From contig DATFUZ010000066.1 of the NCBI GenBank assembly GCA_035260545.1, positions 1-35,772 of the forward strand: a stretch of DNA of 35,772 bases. The letters are read 5' to 3'. The translations under genes and the position numbers were made by a program. Each line of letters starts with the position of its first letter. The first letter of the stretch is position 1. This DNA comes from Gallionellaceae bacterium. Lineage in GTDB: Bacteria; Pseudomonadota; Gammaproteobacteria; Burkholderiales; Gallionellaceae. The notes under the pieces were generated by a model, which searched no databases, was not told the DNA's origin, and saw only the letters and a program-made list of their open reading frames with translations. This document shows, one piece after another, positions 7,243 through 35,772 of this stretch.

Positions 7243-7243
7243 G

Positions 7244-12055: not shown

Positions 12056-12155
12056 TGTACGCTTTGGCTATCCTGATAACGCCGATCAGACGGATTTCAA
12101 TCCTGTTCCTCGAAACTACTGAGGCTTAACAGAGCTCGCGGGGCGCAATAAGCGT

Positions 12156-12243
12156 GCGTAGCCCGGATGCAGCGGAGCGGAATCCGGGTTGAGTCCGCAG
12201 GTTAACCCATCCCGGATTCAATTGCATTGCATCCGGGCTACGC
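12156..12243. repeat. Nested inverted-repeat element. An outer 16-bp perfect inverted repeat GCGTAGCCCGGATGCA/TGCATCCGGGCTACGC encloses an inner 9-bp inverted repeat GAATCCGGG/CCCGGATTC.
   Basis: The outer arms are at 12156-12171 and 12228-12243. The inner arms are at about 12180-12188 and 12211-12219. The element lies immediately 3', on the minus strand, of the 180-aa gene's stop at 12248. It is upstream of the 391-aa gene's promoter region. Confidence 0.5.
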
Positions 12244-12247
12244 TTGC

Positions 12248-12790
12248 TCAAAGGAGGGTTTTGCGTTTTCCCCGTTCCGGGTCGGTAAGCCAGAAAATAA
12301 GCACGGCCGCCAGCAAGGCCATGAGGGCGGCGGATTGCCCCCAAGCTACGCTCCCAAAATAGCGAAGGTATATGCCGGCAATAGCCAATACCACACCGAG
12401 CGCGCCGGCCGCCACGCGCAGCGCGGATGGCCACTGGCGTACCTGCGCCGGTAGCCGGGACGCAGGCCGCGGCTGGTCTATCTGCTCGCCGCTCTCGCAC
12501 GTCTCGCCGTCGTCTCCCTGCACCTTTGCTGCGAATTCGCGCGCCATGACCACCATCTTGTCGACGATCGCCTTGTCCGGGTTCTTGGTATAAATTTGCC
12601 CGTTTTTCCAGTCGAACCATGGCTCCGCATATTCGCACTTGCCGTGCCACATCGTGAAATATGGTCCTTGGTCCGGCAACAACTGTAGTTCTGAATCGCG
12701 TTCGACGTAGGCCAGCCATTCGGCGGCGGTGATCTCATTACCTTCGTCAATCCAGTGGTCGCGTCGAGTTATATGAAAATCGTAGCCCAC
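12248..12790 (-). CDS. Hypothetical membrane protein (180 aa). It has a ~110-aa N-terminal soluble domain and two C-terminal transmembrane helices.
   Basis: The GTG start at 12790 is preceded by the ribosome-binding site AGGAA with 5-nt spacing. The hydrophobic helices are ALRVAAGALGVVLAIAGIYL and SAALMALLAAVLIFWL. The gene is low-GC. I recognised no family. Confidence 0.55.
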   Translation of the reverse strand: MGYDFHITRRDHWIDEGNEITAAEWLAYVERDSELQLLPDQGPYFTMWHGKCEYAEPWFDWKNGQIYTKNPDKAIVDKMVVMAREFAAKVQGDDGETCESGEQIDQPRPASRLPAQVRQWPSALRVAAGALGVVLAIAGIYLRYFGSVAWGQSAALMALLAAVLIFWLTDPERGKRKTLL

Positions 12791-13345
12791 GTCTGTTCCT
12801 ATCGATTGAAATCGGTCTTCAAGGGCGATTCAAAGTCCGGCGCCCTTATAAAAGAAACAGCACGGCGGACGTCGGTTTATGGGACAACTCCGTCCTTCTG
12901 GATCGTCCGCTTGCGAGCAGTCTACTTGAGGGGGCAATCGGCTGCAATCGTGGAGCATTGGGGATCAGGCAGCGTTTTATTGAAGACCGTTGCGGGGTAT
13001 GGAATGCCAGGCGGCTTGCCGGGTGCTGCCGGCGAAATCGCTTTCGCGATGTGGATGTGCGCTTTCCCGACCGGCAAGGCACTTTCGGTAGCTTGCCCCT
13101 TCACAACACGATTTGAGAGGGGCTGGGCGCGAGCCGGCCTTGTTTTGATCCGGCCGGGCAGGCCTGCATTATCCTCCGGTGGCGCCGCCTGTCGCCCGGG
13201 CGCCGGCGCGCAAATGGTGCGATGGCGAACGTCGGGCATTCCGCCGCGATCGCATTGCAAACCCACTGTTTCGCCCCCATCTCCGGGCTATCTGCCCCCT
13301 TCCGCGGGGCGGAACTCGTGCTGCCTGCGGGCGCCCAAGCCGGGG

Positions 13346-13351
13346 TATAAT
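13346..13351 (+). promoter_or_regulatory. Candidate -10 box (GGTATAATT context) for the RNB exoribonuclease gene
   Basis: TATAAT lies 30 nt upstream of the start at 13381. Confidence 0.3.
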
Positions 13352-13380
13352 TCCGTATGGATTTCGGCGCAGTTTGGTAA

Positions 13381-19672: not shown

Positions 19673-21967
19673 TCAGGCGGCCTGCGCCGCGCGCAGATAG
19701 GCCGCGATCTCCAGGGTGGGCAGCGGCCGGCTGAATAGATAGCCCTGGGCAATGTCGCAGCCCTGCCCCATCAGGATGCTCATTTGCTGCTGGGTTTCCA
19801 CGCCCTCGGCCACGACGGTGAGGTGCAGGCCGTGCGCAAGCTGGATGATGGTGTTCGAAATTTCCCGGTCGTTTTCCTCGGCGGCGATGTCCTGCACGAA
19901 TGTCTTGTCGATCTTGAGCTTCTTGATGGGCAGGTGCTTCAGGTAGGCCAGGCTGGAATGGCCGGTGCCGAAATCGTCCACCGAAAAGCTGACGCCCATG
20001 CCGCCCACCCTGTTCATGACCTCCACGGCGTTGTCGACGTCCGTCATCACCGCGCGCTCCGTCAGTTCGAGTTCGAGGTAGCGGGCATCCAGTCCGGTCT
20101 TGCGCAATGCGGACTCCACGGAATCGAAGAAGCTTTCATGGCGCATTTGCCGGGCCGACACATTCACCGCTACCGGCAATGCCATCAGGCCGGCACGCTG
20201 CCATTGCCGCATCTGGCGGCATGCTTCGTGTATGGACCATTCGCCGAGCTGAATGATGAGGTCGCTGTCCTCTGCGATGGGGATGAACTGGTCGGGGGGG
20301 ATCATGTTGAGGCTCGCGTGCGGCCAGCGCACCAGCGCTTCCAGGCCGACCACCCGGCGGGTCTTCATCGAGATCTGCGGCTGGTAATAGAGCACCAGTT
20401 CCTCGTTCAGCAGCGCGTTGCGCAGGTCGTTTTCCAGCCGCAGCCGCTCGAGCGCGAGCACGTTGAGTTTTTCGGTGAAGAAGGCGAAATCGTTCTTGCC
20501 CTTGCCCTTGGCCTGGTACAGCGCCAGTTCGGCATTCTTGATGATGGATTCTACGTCACTGCCATCCTTGGGGAACACGCCAATGCCGACGCTCGCCGTC
20601 ATCGAAATCTTGTGCAGGCCGATGCCTATGGTATTGGTCACGTGGCCGATCACCTTGCGCGCGACCTGCTTGGCGCCCTCGGCCCCCACTTCCGGAACGA
20701 CCAGCACGAATTCATCCCCGCCCATGCGCGCGACCATGTCCATTTCGCGCACCACCCCTTTGAGCCTGCTGGCCAAGGTTTGCAGAATCAGGTCACCGAC
20801 ATGGTGGCCCAGCGAATCGTTGATGTTCTTGAAGTTGTCGATGTCGATGATCAGCAGGGCGAACTCGCGCCGGTCGCGCTGAGACGAGGCAATCAACTGG
20901 TTTACGCGGTCACGCATGAGACCGCCGTTGGGCAGCCCGGTCAATTGGTCGTAATAGGCGAGGTGCCGCACCCGGTCCTGCGCCAGCTTGAATTCGGTAA
21001 TGTCGCTGGTGACGCCGACGTAGTGAGTCACGCGGCCGCTTTCGTCGCGCAGCGCGCTGATGGCCAGGCGGCCGGCATAATGCGCCCCGTTCTTGCGCCG
21101 GTTCCACACCTCTCCCTCCCAGTAGCCGTCCCGCAGCAGACTGGCCCACATGTCCGTGTATAATTCCGTGCGCTGCTTGCCCGAATTCAGAATCCGCGGG
21201 TTCTTGCCGATGACTTCCTCGGGCGTGTAGCCGGTAATCCGCGTGAAGGCCGGGTTGACGGAGATGATCGTTCCGTCCGTTTCGGTGATGATGATGGAGT
21301 CGTGGCTCTTCTCGAAGATCTTGGCGGTGAGCCGCATCTGCTCTTCCGATTTCCGGCGCGCGGTAATATCGAGCACGTAGCCGGCGATGCCCAGCAGTTT
21401 GCCTTGCGCATCCGTAATCGGATTGCGATAGACTTCGAGCCACTGATGCTCACCCCCGCCCGGCGTATGCAGCTCGGTGAGCGTCTGCCGGCCGGACGCC
21501 ATGATGGCCTGGTCGTCGTCGCGGAAGCCTTCCATCATCCACTGCGGGCAGACTTCGGCGCTGGTCTTGCCTATCACCTCGGAAGCGTCAGTCTTGCCGC
21601 AAGCGGCGACGAACTTCTGGTTTACCGCAAGATACCGCCCTTCCACGTTCTTGAGCCACGCCATGGAGGGCAGATTGTCCAGCATCGCATGCAATCTGGC
21701 CTCGTGCTCGCGGCGGCTCTCGTTCGCGCGTTCAAGACTCCGGATGGTCTCGACCAGGGGGCGATACACCAGAAAGTAGACGACCGGAAACAGGATGATC
21801 GCAAGTGCCGACGCATCGAGGACATCCTCCCCCCAGGGCGGCATTTGCGGCACCAGGGGGAGCGCGGCCATGACCAGTATCTCGATGGAGAATACGGTGA
21901 CCAGCACCGCCAGCAGCAGCCGCAACGGCGAAGGAATGCGCGCAGGCTTGCCGCCGTGTGGCGTCAT
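19673..21967 (-). CDS. Membrane-anchored PAS-PAS-GGDEF-EAL sensor (bifunctional diguanylate cyclase/phosphodiesterase)
   Basis: Two N-terminal transmembrane helices follow the start MTPHGGKPARIPSPLRLLLAVLVTVFSIEILVMAALPLV. PAS repeats are present. The GGDEF motif is intact (ARMGGDEFVLV). The EAL motif is intact (VVGLEALVRW). I placed the start at the ATG complement(21965..21967). The longer ORF extending to 22240 adds an Arg/Pro/Ala-rich segment that looks like a GC artefact. Confidence 0.8.
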   Translation of the reverse strand: MTPHGGKPARIPSPLRLLLAVLVTVFSIEILVMAALPLVPQMPPWGEDVLDASALAIILFPVVYFLVYRPLVETIRSLERANESRREHEARLHAMLDNLPSMAWLKNVEGRYLAVNQKFVAACGKTDASEVIGKTSAEVCPQWMMEGFRDDDQAIMASGRQTLTELHTPGGGEHQWLEVYRNPITDAQGKLLGIAGYVLDITARRKSEEQMRLTAKIFEKSHDSIIITETDGTIISVNPAFTRITGYTPEEVIGKNPRILNSGKQRTELYTDMWASLLRDGYWEGEVWNRRKNGAHYAGRLAISALRDESGRVTHYVGVTSDITEFKLAQDRVRHLAYYDQLTGLPNGGLMRDRVNQLIASSQRDRREFALLIIDIDNFKNINDSLGHHVGDLILQTLASRLKGVVREMDMVARMGGDEFVLVVPEVGAEGAKQVARKVIGHVTNTIGIGLHKISMTASVGIGVFPKDGSDVESIIKNAELALYQAKGKGKNDFAFFTEKLNVLALERLRLENDLRNALLNEELVLYYQPQISMKTRRVVGLEALVRWPHASLNMIPPDQFIPIAEDSDLIIQLGEWSIHEACRQMRQWQRAGLMALPVAVNVSARQMRHESFFDSVESALRKTGLDARYLELELTERAVMTDVDNAVEVMNRVGGMGVSFSVDDFGTGHSSLAYLKHLPIKKLKIDKTFVQDIAAEENDREISNTIIQLAHGLHLTVVAEGVETQQQMSILMGQGCDIAQGYLFSRPLPTLEIAAYLRAAQAA

Positions 21968-22322: not shown

Positions 22323-23315
22323 TCAGTGAACTAGAAAATCGATGACGTTGCGCCCGTGGGCGCGGCCCTGAATCAGATCCTGGCATGTCTCGGGCAGCTG
22401 GCCCAGGGTCAGCACGCGGGTCACCGCAGTCAGTTGCGCCGGACGCAGGTCCGTCGCCAGGCGGCGCCAGATTTTCCTGCGCAACGGCATGTCCGTCGCG
22501 GCCGAATCCACTCCCAGCAGCTTGACGCCGCGCAGGATGAAAGGAAAGACGCTGGTGTGCAGCTCCACTCCGCCGGCATTGCCGAAACTGGCGATCGCCC
22601 CGTCCTGCGCCATGGTGCGGAGCAGCCAGGCCAGCATGGGGCCGCCCACGGCATCCAGCGCACCCGCCCATTGTGCGGATTCGAGAGGGCGCTTGCTCTC
22701 CAGGTCTATGGCGGCACGCGGCAGGATCTCCGCCGCCCCCAGTTCCCTGAGGTAGGCGTGTTCGCTGTCCTTTCCGGTCACAGCCACCACATGGTAGCCG
22801 AGCTGCGCCAGCATCTGCACAGCCAGGCTGCCCACGCCGCCGGTCGCACCGGTGACCACGACTTTGCCACGCTCCGGCGCAAGCTCGTTCTGCTCCAGGC
22901 GATGGATGGCCAGCGCGGCGGTGAACCCCGCCGTGCCCAGCGCCATCGCATCGAGCAGGGTCAACCCATCCGGCAGCGGCACCGCCCAGTCGGCAGGCAC
23001 GCGCACATACTCGGCGAATCCGCCGTCGTGCGACACGCCCATGCCATAGCCGGTGACCACCACTTCATCGCCCGCCTTGAAGCGGTCATCGGACGAAGTT
23101 TCGACCACCCCTGCGGCGTCCACGCCGCCCACGCAGGGAATACGCCGGATGATCTTGCCCGCCCCGGTCGCGGCCAGCGCATCCTTGTAGTTCACGCTGG
23201 AATAGCGCGTGCGTATCACCACCTCGCCCGGATCGAGATCGGCCAGTTCGAGATTTACCAGACGCCCGGCCGATTTGCCGTTCTCCTCGAAGATTCTGTA
23301 CGCCCGGAAGCTCAT
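22323..23315 (-). CDS. YhdH/AcuI-family MDR NAD(P)H-dependent oxidoreductase (quinone oxidoreductase/acrylyl-CoA reductase-like)
   Basis: The product has the YhdH-type N-terminal GroES-like domain (SVNYKDALA…GVDAAGVV) and a Rossmann motif VTGATGGVGSLAVQ. The start (MSFRAY…) lies 8 nt downstream of the sucB stop. Confidence 0.75.
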   Translation of the reverse strand: MSFRAYRIFEENGKSAGRLVNLELADLDPGEVVIRTRYSSVNYKDALAATGAGKIIRRIPCVGGVDAAGVVETSSDDRFKAGDEVVVTGYGMGVSHDGGFAEYVRVPADWAVPLPDGLTLLDAMALGTAGFTAALAIHRLEQNELAPERGKVVVTGATGGVGSLAVQMLAQLGYHVVAVTGKDSEHAYLRELGAAEILPRAAIDLESKRPLESAQWAGALDAVGGPMLAWLLRTMAQDGAIASFGNAGGVELHTSVFPFILRGVKLLGVDSAATDMPLRRKIWRRLATDLRPAQLTAVTRVLTLGQLPETCQDLIQGRAHGRNVIDFLVH

Positions 23316-23323
23316 GGGCATCC

Positions 23324-24496
23324 TCACAGGTCCAGCAGGACGCGCCCGGGGTACTCCAGCGCCTCCTTCAGCGCCACCAGGAACAGCACGGCATCGCGCC
23401 CGTCGACAATGCGGTGGTCGTAGGAAAGCGCAAGATAATTCATGGGACGGATGACCACCTGGCCGTTTTCGGCCACGGGCCTGTCCTTGGTCGCGTGGAT
23501 GCCGAGGATGGCGCTCTGCGGCGGATTGAGGATGGGCGTGGACAGCATGGACCCGAACACGCCGCCGTTGGTGATGGAGAATGTCCCGCCCGTGAGTTCC
23601 TCCATGGTCAGCTTGCCGGTTTTGGCGCGCGCGGCAAAGTCGGTGATCTGCCGTTCGATGTCGGCCATCGACAGCTTGTCGGCATCGCGGATGATGGGCA
23701 CCACCAGGCCGCGCTCGCTGCCGATGGCTACGCCTACATCGTAATAGCCGTGATAGATGATGTCGGTTCCGTCGATGGAGGCGTTCACGACGGGAAACTG
23801 CTGCAACGCGGATACCGCCGCCTTGACGAAGAACGAGGAGAAACCCAGCTTCACGCCGTGCTTTTTCTCGAAGGCATCCTTGTAGCGCGCACGCAGGTCC
23901 ATCACCGGCTGCATGTTCACTTCATTGAAGGTGGTGAGGATGGCGGCGTTTTGTTGCGATTGCAGCAGGCGTTCGGCAATGCGCTGGCGTATGCGCGTCA
24001 TCGGCACGCGCTGCTCGGGACGGTTGCCGCCAGGCAGGACTGCGGTGGGCTGGACCACGGCGGGGCGGGATACGGCGGCGGGGCGCGATACGGCGGCCAG
24101 CACGTCCCCCCGGGTCACCACGCCATGACGGCCGGTGCCCTGGATCTCGCTGGTGTCTATCTCCGCCGCGTGCGCCGCGCGGCGCGCCGAGGGCGTGGTC
24201 GCGCCGGGCGGGGGCGCGGCCGCTTCGACCGCGGGCGCCGCTGCGGCCTCGGCCACGGCCTCGGTATCCAGCGCCGCGATTACCTCGTTGCTCCCGACCT
24301 TCGCCCCGTTCTGCTTGCTGATGCTCACCAGCACGCCGCTCTTGGGCGCCGGCAGTTCGAGCACAACCTTGTCGGTTTCGATGTCGATGAGGTTTTCACC
24401 CTCCTCCACGGCCTGGCCGACCTGCTTGTTCCAGGTAAGCAGGGTGGCTTCGGTGACGGACTCCGAGAGCTGCGGAACCTTGATGTCGATTTTCAT
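23324..24496 (-). CDS. sucB: Dihydrolipoyllysine-residue succinyltransferase (E2 of 2-oxoglutarate dehydrogenase)
   Basis: A lipoyl domain is present ([13 protein letters not shown]), then an Ala/Pro-rich linker. The C-terminal catalytic domain carries the [11 protein letters not shown] motif. Confidence 0.95.
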
Positions 24497-24557: not shown

Positions 24558-27431
24558 TCAATGGGGAGCATGGCGCCGCGCCGCGGGATTGTTGGTCTGG
24601 CTGATGTCCGGCCGGAAAGCAGCCGCTATCACCGCATTCTGCTGTTCGTTATGCACCGCAAGGTAGCCCGCGGCCGGCGCGGCGGCGGAGGCGCGCAAGG
24701 CGTAGCCCAGTTTCATCTCGCGGCGCATGTGGCGCAGCAGGTAATGCTGGATGCGGTGCCAGGCGCCCTGGTTGCCCGGCTCTTCCTGGCACCACAGCAC
24801 CTCGGTGGCATTCGGGTAGGCCGCGATCTGGGCGGCAAAGGCGTCATGCGGGAAGGGATAGAGCTGTTCCAGGCGGATGACCGCCATGTCGGTGATCTTG
24901 CGCTCCTGCCGCGCCGCAATCAGTTCGTAATAGATCTTGCCGCTGCAGGCGATGATGCGCTTCACCTTGCTTGCCTCCAGCGCTTCGGCTTCGGCGATCA
25001 CCGGCTGAAAGCCGCCTTCCGCGAGGTGCTGCATGGGCGAGGCCGCCGCTTTGCTGCGCAGCAGGCTTTTCGGCGTGAATACGATGAGCGGGCGGCGCAT
25101 GTTGCGGCGCATCTGGCGCCGCAACAGGTGGAACATCTGCGCGGGGGTGGACGGGATGCACACCTGGAGGTTGTAATCCGCGCACAGTTGCAGGTAGCGC
25201 TCGATGCGCCCCGAGGAATGCTCCGCGCCCTGCCCCTCGTAGCCATGCGGCAGCAGCATGACCAGCCCGCACAGGCGCCCCCACTTCACCTCGCCGGAGG
25301 CGATGAACTGGTCTATCACGACCTGGGCGCCGTTGGCGAAGTCGCCGAACTGCGCCTCCCAGATGGTGAGCGTCTCCGGGTCGGCCGTGGCGTAGCCATA
25401 CTCGTAGGCAAGCACGGCCTCTTCCGACAGGATGGAATTGATCACCACAAAATTGGCCTGGTCCGGCGCCAGGTTGGAGAGCGGCACGTAGGGCGGCTCG
25501 CGCCAGTTCGTCCGCCCCTGGTTGTGCAGTTCGGCGTGGCGGTGGAAGAAGGTGCCGCGGCCGACATCCTGGCCCGACAGGCGAACCGGATAGCCCTCGG
25601 TGAGCAGCGTGGCGTAGGCCAGGTTTTCCGCCATGCCCCAGTCCAGCGCGAGTTCGCCGCGCCCCATCGCGCGCCGGTCCGCGATGACCTTCTCCACGCG
25701 CGAATGCAGCGTGATGTTTCCGGGCACATCGGTGAGCCGTTCCGCCAGGAGTTGCAGCCGCTCCAGCGGCACCGCGGTTTCGACTGCGGCATTCCACGGA
25801 TCGCCCGGATTGTATTTCTGCCAGCGCGCGGTATCGACCGAGCCGCCGTCACGCGGCACCGTGTGCACCGGGCTGATGCCCTCGTCCATCATCTTGCGGT
25901 AGGCCGCCACCATTTCGTCGGGCTCTTCCGGCTTGATCACCCCCTCCTGCTGCAGGCGCTGGGCGTAAAGCGCCCGGGTGCCGGGGTGCTTGTTGATGTA
26001 GCGGTACATGAAGGGCTGGGTCACCAGCGGCTCATCCTGTTCGTTGTGCCCCAGCTTGCGGAAACAGACCAGGTCGATCACCACATCGCTGTGGAACTGC
26101 ATGCGGTAATCGAAAGCGATCTCGGTCACCAGCACCACCGCCTCCGGATCGTCGGCATTGACGTGGATGATCGGCGCCTCGATCATTTTCGCGACATCGC
26201 TGCAATACAGCGAGGAACGTGCATCGCGCGCATCCGACGTAGTGAAGCCGATCTGGTTGTTGATGATGACATGCACCGTGCCGCCGGTGCGGAACCCGCG
26301 CGTCTGCGACAGGTTGAGGGTCTCCATCACCACGCCCTGCCCGGCAAAGGCCGCGTCGCCATGGATCAGGACCGGGATGACCGCGTCTCCTTCGTGATCG
26401 CCGCGCGCGTGCTGACGCGCGCGCACCGACCCTTCCACCACCGGATTGACGATCTCGAGGTGCGAGGGATTGAAGGCGAGTGCGACGTGCATCTGCCCGC
26501 CCTGTGTAACGATATTCGAAGAAAAACCGTTGTGGTATTTCACGTCGCCGGAGCTCAGGTTCCCGGCGTGATGCCCCTCGAATTCGGCGAACAGCATGGA
26601 AGGCAGCTTGCCCAGGATATTGACCAGCACGTTGAGCCGCCCGCGGTGGGCCATGCCGATCACCGTCTCCTTCACGCCGGCGCTTGCCGCACGCTGCAGC
26701 AGATGATCGAGCAGCGGAATGAGGGTTTCCCCGCCTTCCAGCGAGAAGCGCTTCTGCCCGACGTACTTGGTATGCAGGTAGCGCTCCAGCCCTTCCGCGG
26801 CGGTAAGCCGCTCGAGAATGCGGCGGCGCATGGCGGGCTCATAGTGGGCGGCGCCGCGCACGCCCTCGAGGCGCTGCTGAATCCAGCGCTTCTGGGCGTA
26901 GTCTCCGATGTACATGTACTCCGCACCGATCGAGCCGCAATAGGTCTGGCGCAACAGCTGCAGGATCTCGCGCAAGGTCATGCGCTGCGCGGCCACCAGC
27001 GAGCCGGTCTCGAACGTCGTATCCATGTCCGCCTCGGTGAAACCGTAAAACTCGGGATCGAGTTCAGGCACGTCCGGCTTGACGTGCCGGGCCAGCGGAT
27101 CGAGGTCGGCGTTGCGCACGCCGAGGAAGCGGTAGGCGTTGATGAGTTGCAGGACCGCAACCTGCCTGCGGTCGGGCGCGGCCTCGGCGGCCGGCGTCAT
27201 CGCCTGGCGGGGCAGGGCTGCAAATGCCCTCACGATCGGGCTATGCGGCACCTCGCGCGCGGCGTCCGGCCCGGAGCGGATGCGGTCGAAAAAGGCGCGC
27301 CAGCCGTCCGGCACCGAGGCCGGGTCGGCCAGGTAATCCTCGTACAGGCCCTCGACGAACAGATCGTTCATGCCGAACAGGGCGGACGACGACACCATCG
27401 CTTGTATATCGTTTTTTTCCTGTCCGGCCAT
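24558..27431 (-). CDS. sucA: 2-oxoglutarate dehydrogenase E1 component
   Basis: The 957-aa product carries the thiamine-diphosphate enzyme motifs GMAHRGRLNVL and HGDAAFAGQG. It is collinear with SucA/OdhA. Confidence 0.95.
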   Translation of the reverse strand: MAGQEKNDIQAMVSSSALFGMNDLFVEGLYEDYLADPASVPDGWRAFFDRIRSGPDAAREVPHSPIVRAFAALPRQAMTPAAEAAPDRRQVAVLQLINAYRFLGVRNADLDPLARHVKPDVPELDPEFYGFTEADMDTTFETGSLVAAQRMTLREILQLLRQTYCGSIGAEYMYIGDYAQKRWIQQRLEGVRGAAHYEPAMRRRILERLTAAEGLERYLHTKYVGQKRFSLEGGETLIPLLDHLLQRAASAGVKETVIGMAHRGRLNVLVNILGKLPSMLFAEFEGHHAGNLSSGDVKYHNGFSSNIVTQGGQMHVALAFNPSHLEIVNPVVEGSVRARQHARGDHEGDAVIPVLIHGDAAFAGQGVVMETLNLSQTRGFRTGGTVHVIINNQIGFTTSDARDARSSLYCSDVAKMIEAPIIHVNADDPEAVVLVTEIAFDYRMQFHSDVVIDLVCFRKLGHNEQDEPLVTQPFMYRYINKHPGTRALYAQRLQQEGVIKPEEPDEMVAAYRKMMDEGISPVHTVPRDGGSVDTARWQKYNPGDPWNAAVETAVPLERLQLLAERLTDVPGNITLHSRVEKVIADRRAMGRGELALDWGMAENLAYATLLTEGYPVRLSGQDVGRGTFFHRHAELHNQGRTNWREPPYVPLSNLAPDQANFVVINSILSEEAVLAYEYGYATADPETLTIWEAQFGDFANGAQVVIDQFIASGEVKWGRLCGLVMLLPHGYEGQGAEHSSGRIERYLQLCADYNLQVCIPSTPAQMFHLLRRQMRRNMRRPLIVFTPKSLLRSKAAASPMQHLAEGGFQPVIAEAEALEASKVKRIIACSGKIYYELIAARQERKITDMAVIRLEQLYPFPHDAFAAQIAAYPNATEVLWCQEEPGNQGAWHRIQHYLLRHMRREMKLGYALRASAAAPAAGYLAVHNEQQNAVIAAAFRPDISQTNNPAARRHAPH

Positions 27432-27519: not shown

Positions 27520-28806
27520 TCAGCGTCCCTCTATGGGAACATAGTCGCGCTTTTGCGCGCCCAGGTAGAGCTGGCGCGGACGGCCGATCTTGCGCTCGTT
27601 GTCGGCCATCATCTCGTTCCATTGCGAAATCCAGCCTATGCTGCGCGCCACCGCAAAGAACACCGTGAACATGTTGGTCGGCACCCCCAGCGCCTTGAGC
27701 ACGATGCCGGAGTAGAAGTCGACGTTGGGATAAAGCTTGCGCTCGATGAAATAGGGATCGGAAAGCGCGGCCTTCTCCAGCGCCATGGCCAGTTCGAACA
27801 GCTTGCTGTTACCCAGGCCCAGTTCGTGGAGCACCTCGTAGCAGGTCTCGCGCATGACGCTCGCGCGCGGATCCATGTTCTTGTATACGCGGTGGCCGAA
27901 ACCCATCAGCCGGTACTTCTTGTCCTTGACGCCCTGCACGTATTCCGGGACGCGCGACACGTCGCCGATCTCCTCCAGCATCTTGAGCGCGGCCTCGTTC
28001 GCCCCGCCATGCGCCGGGCCCCACAGGGCCGCGATGCCGGAGGCGATGCAGGCGAAGGGATTCGCGCCGCTGGAGCCGGCCAGGCGCACCGTCGACGTGG
28101 AGGCATTCTGCTCGTGGTCCGCGTGCAGGATGAAGATGCGCTCCAGCGCGCGCACCAGCACGGGATTGGGCACGTACTCCTCGGCCGGGGTGCCGAACAT
28201 CATGTACATGAAGTTCTCGACGTAGTTGTAACGGTTCTGGGGAAACATGAACGGCTCGCCGATACTGTACTTGTACGTCATGGCGGCGATCGTGGGCACC
28301 TTGGCCAGCAGGCGGTGCGCGGACACCCTGCGGTGCTCGGGGTCGCTGATGTCCAGGGAATCGTGATAAAACGCCGACAATGCGCCCACCACGCCCACCA
28401 TCACGGCCATGGGATGCGCATCGCGCCGGAAGCCGCTGAAAAATCGCGCGAGCTGGTCGTGCAGCATGGTGTGGTAGGTGATGGTCCGGGCGAAAGCAGC
28501 CTTCTCCGCGACGCTGGGCAACTCGCCGTTCAGCAGCAGGTAGCAAACCTCGATGAAGTCGGACTGCGCCGCCAGTTGCTCGATGGGATAGCCCCGGTAA
28601 TACAGCAGTCCGGCATCGCCGTCGATATAGGTGATGGCCGAACTGCAGCTCGCGGTTGCCATGAATGCGGGGTCGTAGCTGAACAGGCCAAGCTGGTTGA
28701 TGCCGCGGATGTCCACGACATCCGGCCCCAGTGTGCCGGACAGAATGGGCAGTTCCACGCTACGGCCGTCGTCCAGTGTCAATGTTGCGACGCGATTTTT
28801 TGTCAT
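27520..28806 (-). CDS. gltA: Citrate synthase (type II)
   Basis: The 428-aa product is collinear with E. coli GltA. Matching segments are [28 protein letters not shown] and [15 protein letters not shown]. Confidence 0.95.
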
Positions 28807-28840
28807 ACTCTCTCCAACTCCCGTTCGGGCCAGCCGCTGC

Positions 28841-29077
28841 TCAGGCTGCCCGGATCAACTTCAGCACCGCAGCCTGGCTGGCGGCTGGCGGCGCAATCTC
28901 CTCGGACGTAATGATATCCCAGAGTTCCGCATCCGGCATATCCAGCAGGGCGTCAAATGCTTCGCGGCCGGCTTTATCCAGTTCTTCATAGTGCCGCTCC
29001 ACAAACCGGCCCAGGACGATGTCCAGCTCCAGCATGCCGCGGCGGCAACGCCAGCGTACGCGCTCCAGTTCCTTCAT
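28841..29077 (-). CDS. sdhE: FAD assembly factor SdhE (succinate dehydrogenase flavinylation factor)
   Basis: The 78-aa product has the conserved RGxxE motif in [11 protein letters not shown]. Its position between sdhB and gltA is typical. Confidence 0.8.
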
Positions 29078-29093
29078 CGGAATAACAGGGCCG

Positions 29094-29795
29094 CTATACG
29101 GCCCGCTTCGCCATCATGCACTTGATCTTGCCGATGGCCTCGGTGGGATTCAACTCCTTCGGGCATACCTCGGCGCAACTCATGATGGTATGGCAGCGAA
29201 ACAGGCGATAGGGATCTTCCAGATTGTCCAGCCGCTCGGCCGTGGCCTGGTCGCGCGTATCCGCAAGGAAGCGATAGGCCTGAAGCAGGCCGGCCGGCCC
29301 GACGAACTTGTCCGGATTCCACCAGAACGAGGGGCAGGCCGTCGAACAGCATCCGCACAGGATGCATTCGTACAGCCCGTCCAGTTCGCTGCGGTCTTCG
29401 GGGGACTGCAGGCGCTCCGTTTCGGGCGGCGGGTCATTGTTCACGAGGTAGGGCTTGATCGATTCATACTGACGGAAGAACTGCGTCATGTCCACTATCA
29501 GATCGCGGACAACCGGCAGGCCGGGCAGCGGCCGCAGCTCGACCGGCTGCTTCAGGCCGGACAGCGGGGTAATGCAGGCCAGCCCGTTGCGGCCATTGAT
29601 ATTCATGGCGTCCGACCCGCACACTCCCTCGCGGCAGGAGCGGCGGAATGCGATGCTGTCGTCCTGCTCCTTGAGCAGCAGCAGGGCATCGAGCAGCATG
29701 CCCCCGCGTGCCCCCATATCGAGATCGTAGTCCCGCATGACAGGCCGCGCATCAGTTTCGGGGTTGTATCGGTAGATCCTGAATTTCATGCCCAT
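29094..29795 (-). CDS. sdhB: Succinate dehydrogenase iron-sulfur subunit. The start may be at the ATG at 29789 (MKFRIYRYNPE).
   Basis: The Cys clusters CREGVCGSDAMN, CILCGCCSTACPSFWWN and CHTIMSCAEVCPK are present. The product is collinear with E. coli SdhB. Confidence 0.95.
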   Translation of the reverse strand: MGMKFRIYRYNPETDARPVMRDYDLDMGARGGMLLDALLLLKEQDDSIAFRRSCREGVCGSDAMNINGRNGLACITPLSGLKQPVELRPLPGLPVVRDLIVDMTQFFRQYESIKPYLVNNDPPPETERLQSPEDRSELDGLYECILCGCCSTACPSFWWNPDKFVGPAGLLQAYRFLADTRDQATAERLDNLEDPYRLFRCHTIMSCAEVCPKELNPTEAIGKIKCMMAKRAV

Positions 29796-29870
29796 GTCCC
29801 GGCGGAATTGCCCATGGTGGAGAGTTTAGTTGATTCGCCCGCCTCCGGCACGCACTTTGTGCGGCGGGCC

Positions 29871-32243
29871 TCAGGCGGATTTCTGCGGTGACCAGAATTC
29901 GGGCAGGGCATATTTTTTTTTCTCGAACACCGTGACGCAGGCATCCACCACGTCAGGATCGTAATGGGTTCCCCGGTGCTCACGGATTTCCTGCATCGCC
30001 GCCGGCAACCCCAGTGCCGGACGGTAGGGCCGGTGCGAGGCCATGGCCTCGACCACATCGGACACCGCCAGAATGCGCGCCTCCAGCAGAATTTCCTCGC
30101 CCTTCAGGCCGAGCGGGTAGCCCGACCCGTCCACGCGCTCGTGATGCTGCAATATTGTCTGCGCGATGGGCCAGGGAAATTCGATATTCTTGAGGATTTC
30201 GTACCCGGTCTCGGGATGCTGCCGGATCAACCGGTACTCGACCTCGCTCAGCTTGCCCGGCTTGCTGAGGATTTCGGCGGGCACCCGGATCTTGCCGAGG
30301 TCGTGGATGGTAGCTGCAAGATGAATGCCGCGCACCTGATCCTCGGGCAACCCCATCTCCCGGGCGATGGCCTCGGCGAGTCCGGCAACGCGCCGTTCGT
30401 GCCCGGCAGTATAGGGATCACGCATCTCGACCATGGAGGAAACCGCCTGTACCGTGCCCTCGAGTTCGGCACGCAGCTGCTTCAGCATGCGCTCCTGGCC
30501 CTGCCGCAAGCGCATGGTGCCGATGCCGAAGCCCAGGTCGTCCGCCAGTTCCTTCAGCATTGCGACCTCTTCCTCGCCGAATCCGCCGACCTCGTGGGCA
30601 TAGATGTTCAGGCTGCCTATCGTCGAGGTTTTTTCCCTGAGCGGCAAGGCGATGCAGGACGCGGCACCGGCATGCGCCGGCCATTGCCCGCTGAAGACCG
30701 GTTCCGCAGCAACGTCCGCGGACATCTCCGCCTGCCCGCTGCGTATGGCGCGCCCCGCCGGCCATTTTCCGTGCTCGTCATCCGCCCAGGTCAATCTGAC
30801 TCCCTGCAGGGCCGCCTCGTCCAGGCCATGTTGCGCACGCAACTGCAGAGTCTTGCCCGCATCCTGCTCGGCATAGCCGACCCACGCCGCGCGGTAGCCG
30901 CCGCTCTCCACGATCACCGCGCACATGTCCCGCAGCAACTGCTGTTCGTCCTCGGCGAAAACCAGGGTCCGGTTACAGTCGCCTATGGTCTTCAGGGCCT
31001 GGTTGAGCTTGACCAGCCGCTCTTCGCTGCGCTTGCGCTCGGTGATGTCCTCGAAGGAAACGATGGCCGCCGCGACCTCTCGCATGTCTTCGATAAACAG
31101 GGGCTCGGCATTCACGTTTAACCACTGCGTTTCGCCCCCGGGCAATTCAAGACCGACCACGACATTGGTCACGGCTGTGCCGGCCCGCAGGGTACGGAAC
31201 GCAGGCAAGTCATCCTGCGCAAACGGCGTCCCGTCCTCGCGCCGCACCGCCCTGCCGGCAACGGCGCGCGTGGCGCCCACGATCCGCTCGCGGCTCATGC
31301 CGAGCATGCGTTCGGCGGCAGGATTGCAGAGCTGGATCACGCCGCTCTTGCTGTACAACAACACCCCCTCCGCCAGCGACTCGAACATGGAGCGGAATCT
31401 CGCCTCACTGTTGCTGAGCGCCAGTTCCGCCCGCTTGCGTTCGGTGATGTCGGTCATGACGCCCAGCATGCGCAGAGGCTTGCCCTGCTTGTCCCATCGC
31501 ACCACCTTGGCGATCCCGCTCAGCCAGATCCACGCGCCCTGCTGCGAGCTGCGCCGGAATTCCATCGAGACCGGCCCGCCGTTCGCCAGGCACCGCCCGA
31601 AAGCGCGCACCACCGCTTCCTTGTCTTCGGGGTGGAGGCTGTCCATCCACTGTGCCAGCGTCGGCTCAAAGGCTGCCGGGTCGTAACCTATCATCGCGGC
31701 ATATTCCGGACTCACCGCGGCCTTGCCCGTGCGGACATTCAGGTCGAACCACGCCTGGTGCGCCGCGCTGAAGGCCAGCCTGAGCCTTTCCTCGCCGTCG
31801 CGCACCGCCTGCTCCATCAGCTTGCGCTCGGTGATGTCGTACATGATGTGCAGCGAATACAGGTAGCGCCCGTCGCCGTCGGTCACCGCGGCGGCGCGCG
31901 AAAGGTAGATCTGGCCGTTGTCCAGCCTGATTTCCTCTTCCCCCGTTCCGCCCTGTTCGATCAGGGCGGCACACAACGGCAGCGGACCGCTGCGTTTGGG
32001 AAACATCTCGTAATAGGGTTTGCCCACCACCTCCTTCACCGACAGGCCGGCCAGGTCGGCGTAGGCGCGATTGGATCGCGTCACCTTGCATTCCGCGTCA
32101 TGCAGGAAGATGGGATCCTGGATGGTATCCAGGGCGGCAAGCCATTCGTGATGCGCCTTCTTGATGCGCTGGCTGATCTCGTCGGCCGGCATCATGAACA
32201 TCAGCGCCGTACGCTCGCCTATCGAGTCATCCCGGTCGGCCAT
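29871..32243 (-). CDS. Cytoplasmic multi-PAS/GAF sensor with a C-terminal HD-GYP c-di-GMP phosphodiesterase domain
   Basis: The 790-aa product has at least three PAS-like repeats and a GAF-like segment. The C-terminal HD domain has HDLGKI and HHERVDGSGYP (HD-GYP signature). It has no transmembrane segments. The gene lies between sdhA and sdhB. Confidence 0.85.
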   Translation of the reverse strand: MADRDDSIGERTALMFMMPADEISQRIKKAHHEWLAALDTIQDPIFLHDAECKVTRSNRAYADLAGLSVKEVVGKPYYEMFPKRSGPLPLCAALIEQGGTGEEEIRLDNGQIYLSRAAAVTDGDGRYLYSLHIMYDITERKLMEQAVRDGEERLRLAFSAAHQAWFDLNVRTGKAAVSPEYAAMIGYDPAAFEPTLAQWMDSLHPEDKEAVVRAFGRCLANGGPVSMEFRRSSQQGAWIWLSGIAKVVRWDKQGKPLRMLGVMTDITERKRAELALSNSEARFRSMFESLAEGVLLYSKSGVIQLCNPAAERMLGMSRERIVGATRAVAGRAVRREDGTPFAQDDLPAFRTLRAGTAVTNVVVGLELPGGETQWLNVNAEPLFIEDMREVAAAIVSFEDITERKRSEERLVKLNQALKTIGDCNRTLVFAEDEQQLLRDMCAVIVESGGYRAAWVGYAEQDAGKTLQLRAQHGLDEAALQGVRLTWADDEHGKWPAGRAIRSGQAEMSADVAAEPVFSGQWPAHAGAASCIALPLREKTSTIGSLNIYAHEVGGFGEEEVAMLKELADDLGFGIGTMRLRQGQERMLKQLRAELEGTVQAVSSMVEMRDPYTAGHERRVAGLAEAIAREMGLPEDQVRGIHLAATIHDLGKIRVPAEILSKPGKLSEVEYRLIRQHPETGYEILKNIEFPWPIAQTILQHHERVDGSGYPLGLKGEEILLEARILAVSDVVEAMASHRPYRPALGLPAAMQEIREHRGTHYDPDVVDACVTVFEKKKYALPEFWSPQKSA

Positions 32244-32498
32244 GATTTCACTCGGCGGAAGCAGTGCGCCACCCGCTGGCGGCAGGCCAGACGATGGCGC
32301 TATGAGTCGGGTGCTGACGGATGCAATGCATTACGTCTCCCTCAGGCTGGGTGCGCCTCTAATGTAGCACCAACAAGACTTGAACGGTATGGCTTTCCCC
32401 AGCCATATCATGGCGTTATGCGTTTTGCATATCTGGCCGGGCGACCCTCGTAGCGCGTGGCGGCGCCGAGGCAAGCGCGCCCATCACCAGTGCGCCAA

Positions 32499-34262
32499 TC
32501 AATAGACGCGGGGCTTGGGCGGGAACGATTCCACGGTCAGCGGTTTTAGCCGCACCGGTTTGTAGTCAAGCTGCCAGCCCTCGCTGAAATACAGCGAATG
32601 CCTGAGCCAGTTGCCATCGTCCCGTTCCGGAAAATCGTTGCGTGCGTGCGCGCCGCGGCTCTCCTGGCGGACGGCGGCGGCGTGCATGGTGGCCTGCGCC
32701 ACTTCGATCAGGTTGTCCAGCTCCAGCGCTTCGACGCGCGCCGTATTGAACACCCGGCTCTTGTCGCCGATCGCTGTCCGCCGTGCGCGTTCCGCGACCT
32801 CGCGAATCTTCGCGACGCCCTCCGCCAGCAAGTCGGGAAAGCGGAACACGCCGCAATGCGTCTGCATCACGCGGCGCATTTCCGCGGCGACGTCCGGCAC
32901 GCGCTCGCCGCCCTGCTGCCCATCCAGCCGCGCCAGGCGCGCCAGCGAAAACTCCCCGGCGTCGGCGGGCAGGGGCTTGGGGTGCGGGTTGCGCTGCAAG
33001 TCCTCGGCGATCTGCCGCGCCGCCTCCCGGCCGAACACGATGAGGTCGAGCAGGGAGTTGCAGCCCAGCCGGTTCGCCCCGTGCACCGACACGCAGGCGC
33101 ACTCGCCGACCGCGTAAAAGCCCTGCACGATCTCCTCCGGTCCGGTGTGATAGGGTGCGACGACCTGGCCATGGTAATTGGCCGGAATGCCGCCCATCAT
33201 GTAGTGCGCGGTGGGCACCACGGGAATGGGCGCCTGCGCCGGGTCAACGTGCGCGAACTTCATCGCGATGTCGCGTATGCCGGGCAGGCGGTGGCGAATG
33301 ACTTCTTCACCGATGTGATCGACCTTGAGCAGCACGTGGTCGCCATGCGGCCCGCAGCCGCGCCCTTCCTTGATTTCGGTGGCGATGGCGCGCGATACCA
33401 CATCTCGGCTGGCGAGATCCTTCGCGGTGGGGGCATACCTGAGCATGAAGCGCTCCCCGTCCTTGTTGATGAGGTAACCGCCCTCGCCGCGCACGCCTTC
33501 CGAGATCAGCACGCCTGCTCCATATACCCCGGTGGGATGAAACTGGAAAAATTCCATGTCTTGCAGCGGGATGCCGGCGCGGGCGGCCATGCCGAGACCG
33601 TCGCCGGTGTTGATGTAGGCGTTGGTGCTGGAGGCGAAGATGCGCCCGGCGCCGCCGGTGGCAAACAGCGTGGCTCGCGCCTGGAAGATCATCACGTCGC
33701 CGGTCTCGATCTCCATGGCGGTCACTCCGACCACGTCGCCGTCCGCGTCCCGGATCAGGTCCAGCGCCATCCATTCGACGAAAAAGTGGGTGTTGATGCG
33801 CAGGTTCTGCTGGTACAGCGTATGCAGCAGGGCATGGCCGGTGCGGTCCGCGGCGGCGCAGGCGCGCTGCACCGGCGCCTTGCCGTAGTCCTGCATGTGG
33901 CCGCCGAACGGCCGCTGGTAGATCTTGCCGCTGTCCAGCCGGTCAAACGGCATGCCGTAATGTTCCAGTTCGTACACCACCTCGGGCGCTGCGCGGCACA
34001 TGAACTCGATCGCATCCTGGTCGCCAAGATAATCCGATCCCTTGACCGTGTCATACATATGCCAGTGCCAATTGTCCTCGTGCACATTGCCCAGCGCGGC
34101 GGCAATGCCGCCCTGCGCCGCGACGGTATGCGAGCGGGTGGGAAACACCTTGGACAGCACGGCAACTTTCAGTCCGGCCTCGGACAGCGCCAGCGCCGCG
34201 CGCATGCCCGCGCCGCCGGCGCCGACCACCACCACGTCAAATGTGCGCTTCGCGATCTTCAT
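32499..34262 (-). CDS. sdhA: Succinate dehydrogenase flavoprotein subunit
   Basis: The N-terminus is [18 protein letters not shown], and the [10 protein letters not shown] motif carries the FAD-attachment His. The 587-aa product is collinear with SdhA. Confidence 0.95.
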
Positions 34263-34297
34263 TTATCTCCGTCCCATGTCATGGTGGCCGCCTTCCG

Positions 34298-34645
34298 TCA
34301 GAACGCCCACAGGATCTGCACCGACCAGACAATGTACAGGATCAGCGCCATGATCACCACGGCGTAGATCGCCAGCCTGATGAGCGCCGGCTTGACGTAG
34401 TCCATCACGATGTCGCGCACGCCGACCCAGGCGTGATAGAACATCGCCAGCAGCGTCAGCAGGGTGAACGAACGCATGACGTCGCCTGCAAACAGGCCGG
34501 TCCACGCGTCATACCGCACCGGAGCATGGATCAGCACCCATCCGGCAATGAACAGCGCATATGCAGCCATCACCGCCGCGCTGACGCGCTGGACGATCCA
34601 GTCGCGCAGGCCGTAGTGGGCGCCGGTTACAATGCGGTTCACCAT
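34298..34645 (-). CDS. sdhD: Succinate dehydrogenase hydrophobic membrane anchor subunit
   Basis: The product starts at [16 protein letters not shown]… and has 3 transmembrane helices. The start overlaps the sdhC stop. The longer ORF-track extension is a GC artefact. Confidence 0.85.
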   Translation of the reverse strand: MVNRIVTGAHYGLRDWIVQRVSAAVMAAYALFIAGWVLIHAPVRYDAWTGLFAGDVMRSFTLLTLLAMFYHAWVGVRDIVMDYVKPALIRLAIYAVVIMALILYIVWSVQILWAF

Positions 34646-35013
34646 AGCATGGCTCCCGCGGCGGCGGTCAGCACGAAGCTGACGACGAGCACCCACTTGG
34701 CGGAGGTGCGCGCCCGCCTGAGCTTCACCCCCGCGCCCAGGTCGATTGCCAGAAAGCGCAGTCCGGCGCAAAAGTGGTGCGCCAGCGCCCACAGCACGAC
34801 GAGCAGGACGGCCTTGCTGAGCGGGTGTCCGAGCAGGCGCACGAGCGCGGTATAGGTTTCGATGGAGCGCAGGCTGTATTGCAGCATCCACAGCGCGAAA
34901 GGCAGCGCCAGGAACAACACGGCGCCGCTAATACGGTGCAGAATGGAGATCACGCCCGGCAAGGGCAGCTGAATCAGGAGCAAATCCAGGAATTTCGGGC
35001 GGCTGTTGTGCAT
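34639..35013 (-). CDS. sdhC: Succinate dehydrogenase cytochrome b556 subunit
   Basis: The product starts at [11 protein letters not shown]… and carries the conserved ILHRISG motif. It has 3 transmembrane helices. The upstream ORF-track extension is unsupported. Confidence 0.8.
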
Positions 35014-35197
35014 GCGAGGGTCCTGCCCTGATCTCAGAACGCGACACGCGCATATTACCATCATCACCCGCCTCCCGGTCAAAGGCGGTTTTGCCGGCGA
35101 CTGGCCTGGCAAGGACGCCGGGATCCGGACCGCACCCTTTGCGACGGACGCTGAACACTGGCAGAATGTATCTTCGAGAACTTGCGGGAGAATGAAG

Positions 35198-35772
35198 ATG
35201 AAATCCCCCATCCGCGTTGCCGTTACCGGAGCCGCGGGCCAGATCGGCTACAGCCTGGTGTTCCGCATCGCCAACGGCGACATGCTGGGCCGCGAACAGC
35301 CCATCATCCTGCAGTTGCTCGATGTGGCGCAGGCGCAGCAGGTGCTGCGCGGCGTGGCCATGGAGCTGGAGGACTGCGCGTTTCCCTTGCTGCAGCAGGT
35401 CATTACGACGGACGACCCCAGAGTCGCCTTCCGCGACGCGGAAGTCGCGCTGCTGGTCGGCGCGCGCCCGCGCAGCAAGGGGATGGAACGCAAGGACCTG
35501 CTGGAAGCCAACGGTGCGATCTTTTCCGAGCAGGGGCAGATGCTCAATGAATTCGCGGCACGGCACGTGAAGGTGCTGGTGGTGGGCAATCCTGCGAACA
35601 CCAACGCCCTGATCGCGATGAAGAATGCGCCCGATCTCGATCCCAAGAATTTCAGCGCGATGATGCGCCTGGACCACAACCGCGCCATCGCGCAGGTGGC
35701 GGCCAGGCTGTTTCAGCCGGTGCGCGACGTAAAGAAGATGGTGGTCTGGGGCAACCACTCCGGCACGCAGTA
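35198..35772 (+). CDS. mdh: Malate dehydrogenase (NAD-dependent), 3'-partial at the window edge
   Basis: My manual translation gives [31 protein letters not shown]…, the MDH Rossmann N-terminus. The frame stays open to the end of the window. The ribosome-binding site GGGAG lies 7 nt upstream. The gene is divergent from sdhC. It is absent from the ORF track because no stop lies in the window. Confidence 0.85.

Follow-up and report, generated by a model that had tools for sequence, protein, structure and literature searches.

The stretch of DNA considered here (hereafter 'the window') comprises 35,772 nucleotides of a Gallionellaceae genome (GenBank assembly GCA_035260545.1, contig DATFUZ010000066.1, positions 1 to 35,772), and contains a cluster of genes for succinate dehydrogenase (sdh) and other enzymes of the tricarboxylic acid (TCA) cycle, within which a gene encoding a sensor protein of the HD-GYP phosphodiesterase type ('the sensor') is located between sdhA and sdhB. 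An original prediction, made from the letters of the window, had placed this 2.4-kb gene between the flavoprotein and iron-sulfur subunit genes, on their strand, 255 nucleotides (nt) after sdhA ('gap 1') and 75 nt before sdhB ('gap 2'). The open reading frames (ORFs) and Pfam assignments of all three genes agree with that placement, and both spacings were confirmed by measurement, the second being 75 nt to the first ATG of sdhB and 81 nt to the start codon (opening MKF) that is used by gene callers and by orthologs. The features of the cluster are collected in Table 1. Every gene from sdhC through a PAS-GGDEF-EAL gene is carried on the minus strand, with mdh upstream of sdhC and divergent from it, and with the co-directional gltA, sucA and sucB genes set off by spacers of 34-88 nt.

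Table 1. Features of the sdh and TCA gene cluster, with window coordinates
Feature	Position	Strand	Basis or remark
sdhC, 124 residues	34639..35013	minus	Pfam Sdh_cyt, E=5.9e-25; gene call on identical contig L001
sdhD, 115 residues	34298..34645	minus	Sdh_cyt; SdhD alignment
sdhA, flavoprotein subunit, 587 residues	32499..34262	minus	FAD_binding_2, E=3e-120; Succ_DH_flav_C; NCBI HKB60189.1
15-bp palindrome TATGCAAAACGCATA	32417..32431	minus	TATGC-N5-GCATA in 6 orthologous loci, one imperfect
Hairpin TATGGCT-GGGGAA-AGCCATA of the original prediction	32388..32407	minus	3' arm overlaps conserved TATAcC block
Extended -10-like element TGCTACATT	32361..32369	minus	Candidate sensor-gene promoter
Upstream ORF (uORF), 27 codons plus stop	32248..32331	minus	Shine-Dalgarno sequence GGGAG; ends 4 nt before sensor ATG
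PAS-PAS-PAS-GAF-HD-GYP sensor phosphodiesterase, 790 residues	29871..32243	minus	Pfam; alignment of 15 homologs; PDB matches; dN/dS
Sensor PAS1	31821-32132		
Sensor PAS2	31455-31718		
Sensor PAS3	31038-31370		
Sensor GAF	30522-30953		
Sensor HD-GYP	29949-30446		
Two-block motif GTGCCG-N17-TAAACT	29823..29851	minus	CGAATCAAC directly upstream of TAAACT; candidate sdhB promoter or RNA element
sdhB, iron-sulfur subunit	29094..29789	minus	231 residues from MKF start; longest ORF from 29795; Fer2_3, Fer4
sdhE (Sdh5 flavinylation factor), 78 residues	28841..29077	minus	PF03937, E=5e-25
gltA	27520..28806	minus	Pfam
sucA	24558..27431	minus	Pfam
sucB	23324..24496	minus	Pfam
Acrylyl-CoA reductase-family gene (YhdH/AcuI)	22323..23327	minus	TIGR02823, 446 bits
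PAS-PAS-GGDEF-EAL gene	19673..21967 by gene call, ORF to 22240	minus	GGDEF, EAL (Pfam)

The sensor protein and its solved relatives

Analysis of the sensor with Pfam identified three PAS domains (residues 38-141, 176-263 and 292-402), a GAF domain (431-574) and an HD_5/HD domain of the HD-GYP type (HD superfamily, PF13487; 600-765; E=4.5e-46) that covers the full model (positions 2-170 of 170), with scores for the input domains (PAS_4, 98 bits; PAS_3, 85; PAS_9, 75; GAF_2, 72) that all exceed the corresponding gathering scores. Matches above the NCBIfam cut-offs are at the level of domains only (TIGR00229, 134.7 bits). The HDLGK and HHERVDGSGYP motifs are intact, and in an alignment of 15 homologs both the His-Asp doublet (H647-D648, within IHDLGK) and the HHExxDGxGYP signature (QHHERVDGSGYP, residues 699-710) were found to be invariant. 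Inspection by eye revealed no hydrophobic transmembrane stretch at the N-terminus, and no LOV NCRFLQ-type motif or other recognisable cofactor signature in the PAS domains. Judged by these motifs, the protein appears to be a soluble, cytoplasmic, signal-gated cyclic-dinucleotide phosphodiesterase with a catalytically intact HD-GYP output, in which the three PAS domains and the single GAF domain would control that output; its substrate is probably cyclic di-GMP (c-di-GMP), and its metal site is probably binuclear.

The best solved relative of the sensor (146 bits) is PmGH, a GAF-like HD-GYP c-di-GMP phosphodiesterase from Persephonella marina (PDB 4MCW), which aligns over the end of the GAF domain and the whole of the HD-GYP domain, such that the HHExxDGxGYP signature and all His and Asp positions of the HD, H, HH and D metal-ligand motifs are kept in the sensor. 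The two proteins differ in that the sensor possesses three additional PAS domains and a canonical GAF domain, in that PmGH is not described as the product of an sdh-operon gene, and in that the glutamate of the PmGH DPETQNH motif is replaced by Tyr611 in the sensor (DPYTAGH). That glutamate reportedly binds the third iron of PmGH, and its replacement makes a binuclear centre the likelier arrangement in the sensor. The second-best solved relative (137 bits; best domain 118.6) is V-cGAP3 from Vibrio cholerae (PDB 5Z7C), which is specific for 3'3'-cyclic GMP-AMP (cGAMP), and which shares with the sensor the PYTAGH form of the N-terminal motif (SPYTAGH in V-cGAP3) as well as the HHExxDGxGYP signature, while differing in its tandem HD-GYP modules, its lack of PAS and GAF input and its cGAMP substrate. 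The substrate of the sensor could be 3'3'-cGAMP instead of c-di-GMP, which weighs against the assignment preferred above. FixL and MmoS, also found among the PDB matches, reflect generic PAS similarity.

Nothing in the protein itself is out of the ordinary. In a homology search, 7104 of 8000 scored candidates reached E<=0.001, many of them with the same architecture, and the sensor is therefore regarded as an ordinary member of a large protein family. The proteins of the window correspond to NCBI entries HKB60184-HKB60189, where the sensor is annotated merely as an 'HD domain-containing phosphohydrolase'.

Conservation and inheritance of the arrangement

The window comes from a metagenome-assembled genome (MAG), and the apparent interruption of the sdh genes might thus represent a chimeric assembly, or else a decaying remnant of an HD-GYP gene. 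Against both possibilities, an identical sensor protein was found on eight contigs, which derive from different samples and assemblers (ENA, JGI and Logan), and the same neighbours surround it in all six places examined, as far as those contigs extend. Orthologs of the sensor are full-length and free of frameshifts, their catalytic motifs are intact and their ratios of nonsynonymous to synonymous divergence (dN/dS) are well under 1. An assembly artefact or a pseudogene is effectively already refuted, and is assigned almost no probability.

The homology search returned a tight set of full-length relatives of 47-92% identity, below which generic PAS, GAF and HD-GYP proteins were found. Ten further ortholog clusters from that set (P0002, P0005, P0006, P0007, P0009, P0010, P0011, P0012, P0014 and P0018) all have the gene co-oriented with sdhA and sdhB and placed between them, and with that of the window they bring the number of clusters with this context to eleven. 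The comparison of related genomes that the original prediction had called for thus revealed the same arrangement in relatives. The wider gene order (acs-mdh, followed by sdhCDA-sensor-sdhB-sdhE-gltA-sucAB-acuI) is kept wherever the contig is long enough. Within this sdh-embedded family the first PAS domain is 61-83% identical, while PAS2 and PAS3 are replaced in its most distant members; a Gallionellaceae protein of 46% identity that lacks PAS1 is encoded elsewhere in its genome. PAS1 is thus the signature of the family. A profile search of metagenome contigs with an alignment of PAS1 only recovered no orthologs among the matches listed (best 36% identical), and the patterns seen were those of the generic PAS S-box.

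Several lines of evidence bear on how this arrangement arose. In a neighbour-joining tree of SdhA, the loci that carry the sensor (numbered, like all loci below, with the prefix L) group together within the Gallionellaceae. Pairwise dN/dS values for the sensor are 0.14-0.25 at a synonymous divergence (dS) of about 1, as compared to 0.05 for sdhA and 0.07-0.11 for sdhB and gltA, and the gene is thus under purifying selection. Its GC content (0.643) and its GC content at third codon positions (0.82) equal the values of its neighbours. Gaps 1 and 2 share no pair of inverted repeats, the sensor gene lacks terminal inverted repeats of the type that surround certain other inserts described below, and no mobility gene was found among the Pfam assignments of the cluster ORFs. 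The possibility that the sensor represents a mobile element or a recent horizontal insertion was rejected on the basis of this lack of repeats and mobility genes and of its neighbour-like composition. The shared context, the grouping on the tree, the low dN/dS, the matching composition and the lack of repeats instead point to a single, old capture of the gene at the sdhA-sdhB junction, in an ancestor from which an uncultured subclade of the Gallionellaceae descends, and to vertical transmission of the functional gene thereafter. Weighing against that history, the tree carries no support values, and the sensor-less locus L039 nests within the sensor clade. The insertion is a conserved quirk of its lineage, rather than proof of a new regulatory mechanism.

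The two gaps and a proposed mode of expression

Gap 1 was compared across six loci in which it measures 249-311 nt, at a dS of about 1. The palindrome listed in Table 1 lies 51-70 nt upstream of the extended -10-like element, within which TTGGTGCTAnATT is invariant or nearly so in all six loci, and a TATAcC block is found 19-20 nt upstream of the latter; a similar extended -10-like element (TGGTAATAT) is present upstream of sdhC. The palindrome is possibly an operator. It fits none of the usual patterns for NsrR, FNR/CRP, IscR, Fur or LysR sites, and the TTGGTGCTAnATT element did not fit that of a sigma-54 site when compared by eye. A second copy of the palindrome was sought in the window as a possible indication of a regulon, and none was found, as chance allows. 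Downstream of these elements, the ATG of the uORF is positioned 88-94 nt upstream of the sensor ATG in seven loci, with a GGAG- or GGGG-like Shine-Dalgarno sequence in the six of the seven that have sequence upstream. The uORF spans 27-33 codons and its stop falls between -7 and +8 of the sensor ATG, and its peptide is not conserved. The sensor's own Shine-Dalgarno sequence is weak or absent in the loci that bear the uORF.

The original prediction had also drawn attention to a TATGGCT/AGCCATA hairpin in this gap. The hairpin is present, but a perfect 7-bp hairpin turns up in about 13% of shuffled versions of gap 1, and its stem sequence is not conserved in orthologs. As a candidate intrinsic terminator it was rejected: the 7-bp stem is AT-rich, it is followed by CCGTTCAAG rather than by a T-tract, and it was not called by the terminator scan.

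In gap 2, the two-block motif is kept in ten loci, with a spacing of exactly 17 bp in nine of them; the 5' half of the spacer is variable, and the conserved form directly upstream of TAAACT is CGAATCnAC. The sdhB ATG follows 26-32 nt downstream of the motif (51 nt in L175). As with the palindrome, no second copy was found in the window, as chance allows, and visual comparison revealed no fit to sigma-54 or integron attC patterns. In L012 (region 12472-12644), which carries a 49%-identical ortholog, ATGAAATTT is found downstream of the motif at its usual spacing and opens a 32-codon ORF (MKFSSGH...) that resembles a remnant of the 5' end of sdhB, with the real sdhB start approximately 100 nt further on.

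Scans of both gaps (29796-29870 and 32244-32498) detected no terminator-like site. Predicted RNA folding of the two gaps was no better than that of shuffles (z about -0.6), and an Rfam scan of positions 28800-35772 at E<=1 returned merely a sub-threshold RT-15 match inside a coding region and no known RNA element in the gaps. The fixed-spacing two-block motifs in the gaps appear promoter-like on the strength of their conservation, the sole ground for that reading given that a scan for the sigma-70 consensus called no promoter in either gap. Several further observations weigh against it: the -35-like block, GTGCCG, bears little resemblance to TTGACA; the conserved elements could be RNA processing or stability sites, or binding sites for a regulator, instead; and the gap-1 elements are absent from L011 and L179, and in part from L012, which indicates that they are not essential to the arrangement. 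The layout is more compact in the more distant orthologs: in L011 the gaps measure 80 and 86 nt and the sensor has a strong Shine-Dalgarno sequence of its own, and in L179 gap 1 measures only 46 nt and the stop codon of the sensor gene overlaps the ATG of sdhB.

The original prediction had posed a choice between read-through into sdhB and an operon that has been split and rewired. The dilemma was well chosen, but its two sides are probably both true and need not exclude one another. The conserved palindrome, the TGCTAnATT element, the uORF and GTGCCG-N17-TAAACT fit a split and rewired operon with internal promoters. Read-through is favoured by the shared strand, by the lack of terminators and by the stop and start codons that overlap in L179 and in a second locus described below (L023), an overlap that supports co-transcription with sdh in those two lineages only. 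Judged by sequence, the sensor gene also has the features of an sdh-operon member: it lies on the strand of its neighbours, the spacers are short, and the genes are not separated by an intrinsic terminator. It had further been argued that an arrangement shared by close relatives, with independent promoters for each unit and no coupling of expression, would mark a neutral, lineage-specific insertion; the arrangement is indeed shared, and promoter-like motifs are present in the gaps.

The model that we favour, with somewhat better than even confidence, is that of an operon-embedded and vertically inherited sensor gene that is expressed through both read-through and internal promoters. Transcription from the sdhC promoter would proceed through the sensor gene and on into sdhB-sdhE-gltA-sucAB, the lack of terminators in the gaps making read-through most likely. 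In the subclade of the window, a gap-1 promoter, comprising the palindrome and the extended -10-like element, would additionally drive the sensor gene, under the control of a regulator that binds the palindrome, and translation of the sensor would be coupled to that of the leader uORF. The promoter-like motif in gap 2 would then secure expression of sdhB-sdhE-gltA-sucAB.

Such a composite resembles the sdhCDAB-sucABCD supra-operon of Escherichia coli, in which read-through, an internal suc promoter and transcript processing coexist, and which is likewise a co-directional TCA cluster. The two differ in gene order: in E. coli, sdhA and sdhB are not separated by a foreign gene and gltA is divergent, whereas in the window a signalling gene parts sdhA from sdhB, and the stretch from sdhB to sucA also contains sdhE and gltA. 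In the textbook suc operon, sucB is followed by the E3 gene, lpdA; in the window, sucB overlaps the acrylyl-CoA reductase-family gene by 4 nt, and the same gene follows sucB in L007, L008, L010 and L012, which are all of the related loci that extend far enough to show it.

The sdhA-sdhB junction and the question of coupling to c-di-GMP

The junction was surveyed in one genome per GTDB species by a profile search with an SdhD alignment, which yielded 80 listed loci in which sdhA, sdhB, gltA and sucA were placed by tblastn. The sensor is absent from all 80, the nearest SdhA among them being at most 88% identical, and neither the MAG of the window nor any other sensor-bearing genome is among the loci listed. 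Among the loci listed, 17 of 39 species representatives of the Gallionellaceae and Nitrosomonadaceae have at least one gene directly after sdhA, as compared to none of 30 other Burkholderiales and Rhodocyclales, in which the gap is 7-204 nt (Fisher p=9.5e-6, a value that is descriptive only, as the species are not independent). The view that sdhCDAB is normally uninterrupted, on which the original prediction was based, thus holds in general, but not in this lineage, and an insertion at this site is much less surprising than had been assumed. Uninterrupted operons occur in the same family, and the SdhB protein of the window is 81-86% identical to that of Gallionellaceae that possess them.

The inserted genes are diverse. 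They encode a GxxExxY/PDDEXK_3 nuclease (L015, L022 and L052), a DUF3617 protein (L016, L048 and L055), a NERD protein (L018, Ca. Ferrigenium straubiae), a GmrSD protein (L019-L021, from Nitrotoga and one betaproteobacterial MAG), a CHASE3-GGDEF protein (L023), glucose-6-phosphate dehydrogenase together with glycogen phosphorylase (L077, Nitrosospira briensis, and L087), a LuxR protein (L029), an SH3 protein (L075 and L076, from Nitrosomonas, in which sdhB is not found within about 8 kb downstream of sdhA) and RNase R (L039, where an apparent minus-strand tRNA gene, noted by eye only, also follows sdhA). In every interrupted locus listed, the first inserted gene, as identified by Pfam, is co-oriented with sdhA. 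Sister species on the SdhA tree may carry different cargo, as is the case for L022 (GxxExxY) versus L018 (NERD). The sdhA-sdhB junction is therefore a lineage-specific hotspot that is permissive for same-strand cargo.

Several of these inserts display features of their own. The GxxExxY reading frames (L015, 9091-9561; L022, 12108-12581; L052, 12108-12719), which are 75-78% identical to one another and match TIGR04256, belong to hosts that the SdhA tree does not place as sisters. Three tandem 8-9-mers make up the inverted repeats on either side of each frame (GTCCGCAGATTTCGCAGATTGACGCAGATT ... AATCTGCGTGAATCTGCGAAATCTGCGGAC), and the ORF thus occupies the loop of a long, periodic hairpin. ORF-carrying intervening sequences in 23S rRNA genes, such as that of Coxiella, are constructed likewise, with the ORF in a hairpin loop (PMC4990558). 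The sensor of the window differs from these hairpin-borne nucleases in that it is far larger and has no flanking inverted repeats; the site is the same, and the mechanism another. Long periodic hairpins that lack an ORF occupy this spacer in many other Gallionellaceae. In nine further loci (L030, L036, L040, L047, L051, L054, L056, L066 and L082), the spacer between sdhA and sdhB is 55-120 nt in length and consists of a long imperfect hairpin without an ORF, composed of heptad-like units (for example, GCTTGTAGCTCGTAGCTTGTAGCGGGTAGC ... GCTACAAGCTACCGGCCACAGGCTACAAGC), and several loci also have enlarged sdhD-sdhA spacers. These hairpins may be relatives of those that carry cargo, and may be a cause of the hotspot.

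The GmrSD and NERD cargoes are defence-type nucleases. The former is represented by its N-terminal domain in L020 and L021 (Ca. Nitrotoga, 12151-13548) and in L019, the latter by a NERD domain with a zinc ribbon in L018 (12130-13206), in each case between sdhA and sdhB and on the same strand; in the two loci examined, L018 and L020, the nuclease starts 19-22 nt after sdhA. In L077 (12280-16409) and L087, the two metabolic genes separate sdhA from sdhB by 4.5 kb, and the phosphorylase is apparently split into two ORFs in L087.

Such a hotspot raises the possibility that the sensor is a neutral passenger, which persists since its excision without damage to sdh is unlikely, and for which the motifs in the gaps serve the sensor gene only. 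The statistics of the hotspot and the diversity of its cargo are what such a passenger would lead one to expect, as are the different inserts at the same site in the sister species L022 and L018 and the promoter-like elements and uORF that the sensor gene possesses for itself. However, the gap-2 motif is maintained at a fixed distance from the start of sdhB, even where gap 1 differs (L012 and L177), and the co-orientation of every first insert with sdhA implies selection to preserve transcription into sdhB. A purely neutral passenger is accordingly considered rather improbable, and the composite of read-through and internal promoters remains preferred.

A more ambitious proposal is that, in a subclade of Gallionellaceae related to iron oxidisers, the c-di-GMP phosphodiesterase is an integral, co-transcribed component of a TCA super-operon, its second-messenger turnover being wired to the expression of Sdh and the TCA cycle or to respiratory redox state, and that the CHASE3-GGDEF lineage has independently arrived at the same coupling at the identical junction. 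In such a case c-di-GMP turnover would have to track, or feed back upon, Sdh, TCA gene expression or redox, the position of the gene would be under selection, and the PAS domains of the sensor might, for example, sense flavin or redox state. Three observations are in keeping with this proposal: (i) the gene kept its position even as sequence identity fell to 47% and the middle PAS domains of the sensor were exchanged; (ii) an unrelated CHASE3-GGDEF gene with an intact GGDEF motif occupies the same junction in L023, with overlapping stop and start codons; and (iii) in the window, L007 and L008, the same co-directional cluster closes with a PAS-GGDEF-EAL gene. The CHASE3-GGDEF gene (L023, 12118-13323, from a Nitrosomonadales MAG) encodes a CHASE3-transmembrane-GGDEF diguanylate cyclase (RLGGDEF intact); only 6 nt separate its start from the sdhA stop, and its own stop overlaps the sdhB ATG (TAATG). 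The junction has thus received another c-di-GMP enzyme independently.

These points are offset by several others. The presence of unrelated cargo at the junction (nucleases, DUF3617, and the dehydrogenase and phosphorylase pair) argues for permissiveness and against specificity, and the PAS domains show no recognisable cofactor-binding signature. Members of the Gallionellaceae carry 43-46 GGDEF/EAL genes per approximately 3 Mb (PMC3770913); at the gene frequency of about 2% estimated from that source, the chance of a second c-di-GMP insert among about nine other insert types is approximately 0.17, which is not significant. In view of so diverse a cargo and so high a density of c-di-GMP genes, the retention of the sensor and the independent CHASE3-GGDEF insertion deserve little weight. 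The statement that c-di-GMP enzymes bracket the TCA cluster is affected in the same manner: the PAS-GGDEF-EAL gene is real and lies on the same strand, but it constitutes weak evidence where a genome holds so many such genes and where, in the sensor-bearing loci L010 and L012, no GGDEF-EAL neighbour was seen at that position. In L007 (1086-3597) and L008 (977-3491), a GGDEF-EAL gene and a DUF3391-HD-GYP gene are found upstream of acs-mdh, making the wider neighbourhood of these two loci rich in c-di-GMP genes; the window ends short of that region. On balance, a functional coupling of c-di-GMP turnover to Sdh and the TCA cycle is judged possible but unlikely.

Two features elsewhere in the window are recorded for completeness. 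An RNA-repair cluster spans positions 2404-9148, in which rtcR (2404-3996, minus strand) is divergent from a Band 7 gene, rtcB, rlaP and rtcA (4658-9148, plus strand). Beside rtcR, positions 1-2500 have a low GC content (about 51%, against about 64% elsewhere) and hold a weak PIN-TPR-GreABC-like ORF (191-1372) and an LRAT/NlpC-like ORF (1529-1963); this segment probably represents foreign DNA or an islet of the defence type.

Literature searches found no paper that describes an HD-GYP gene inside an sdh operon, and the context of the sensor is unusual across bacteria, while being unsurprising within this family. The spacer between sdhA and sdhB in the Gallionellaceae and Nitrosomonadaceae serves as an intra-operon landing site for defence nucleases and for signalling and metabolic genes, which is useful for the annotation of these genomes and for the study of the tolerance of operons to insertion; the hotspot, with its hairpin-borne GxxExxY cargo and its strict co-orientation, may outlast the sensor in interest. 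If the position of the sensor is not functional, the locus represents a lineage-specific quirk of synteny that involves an ordinary sensor protein. If it is functional, it would be one of few instances in which a second-messenger enzyme is built into an operon of central metabolism, and would provide a handle on how the microaerophilic Gallionellaceae link energy metabolism to biofilm formation, stalk formation or motility.

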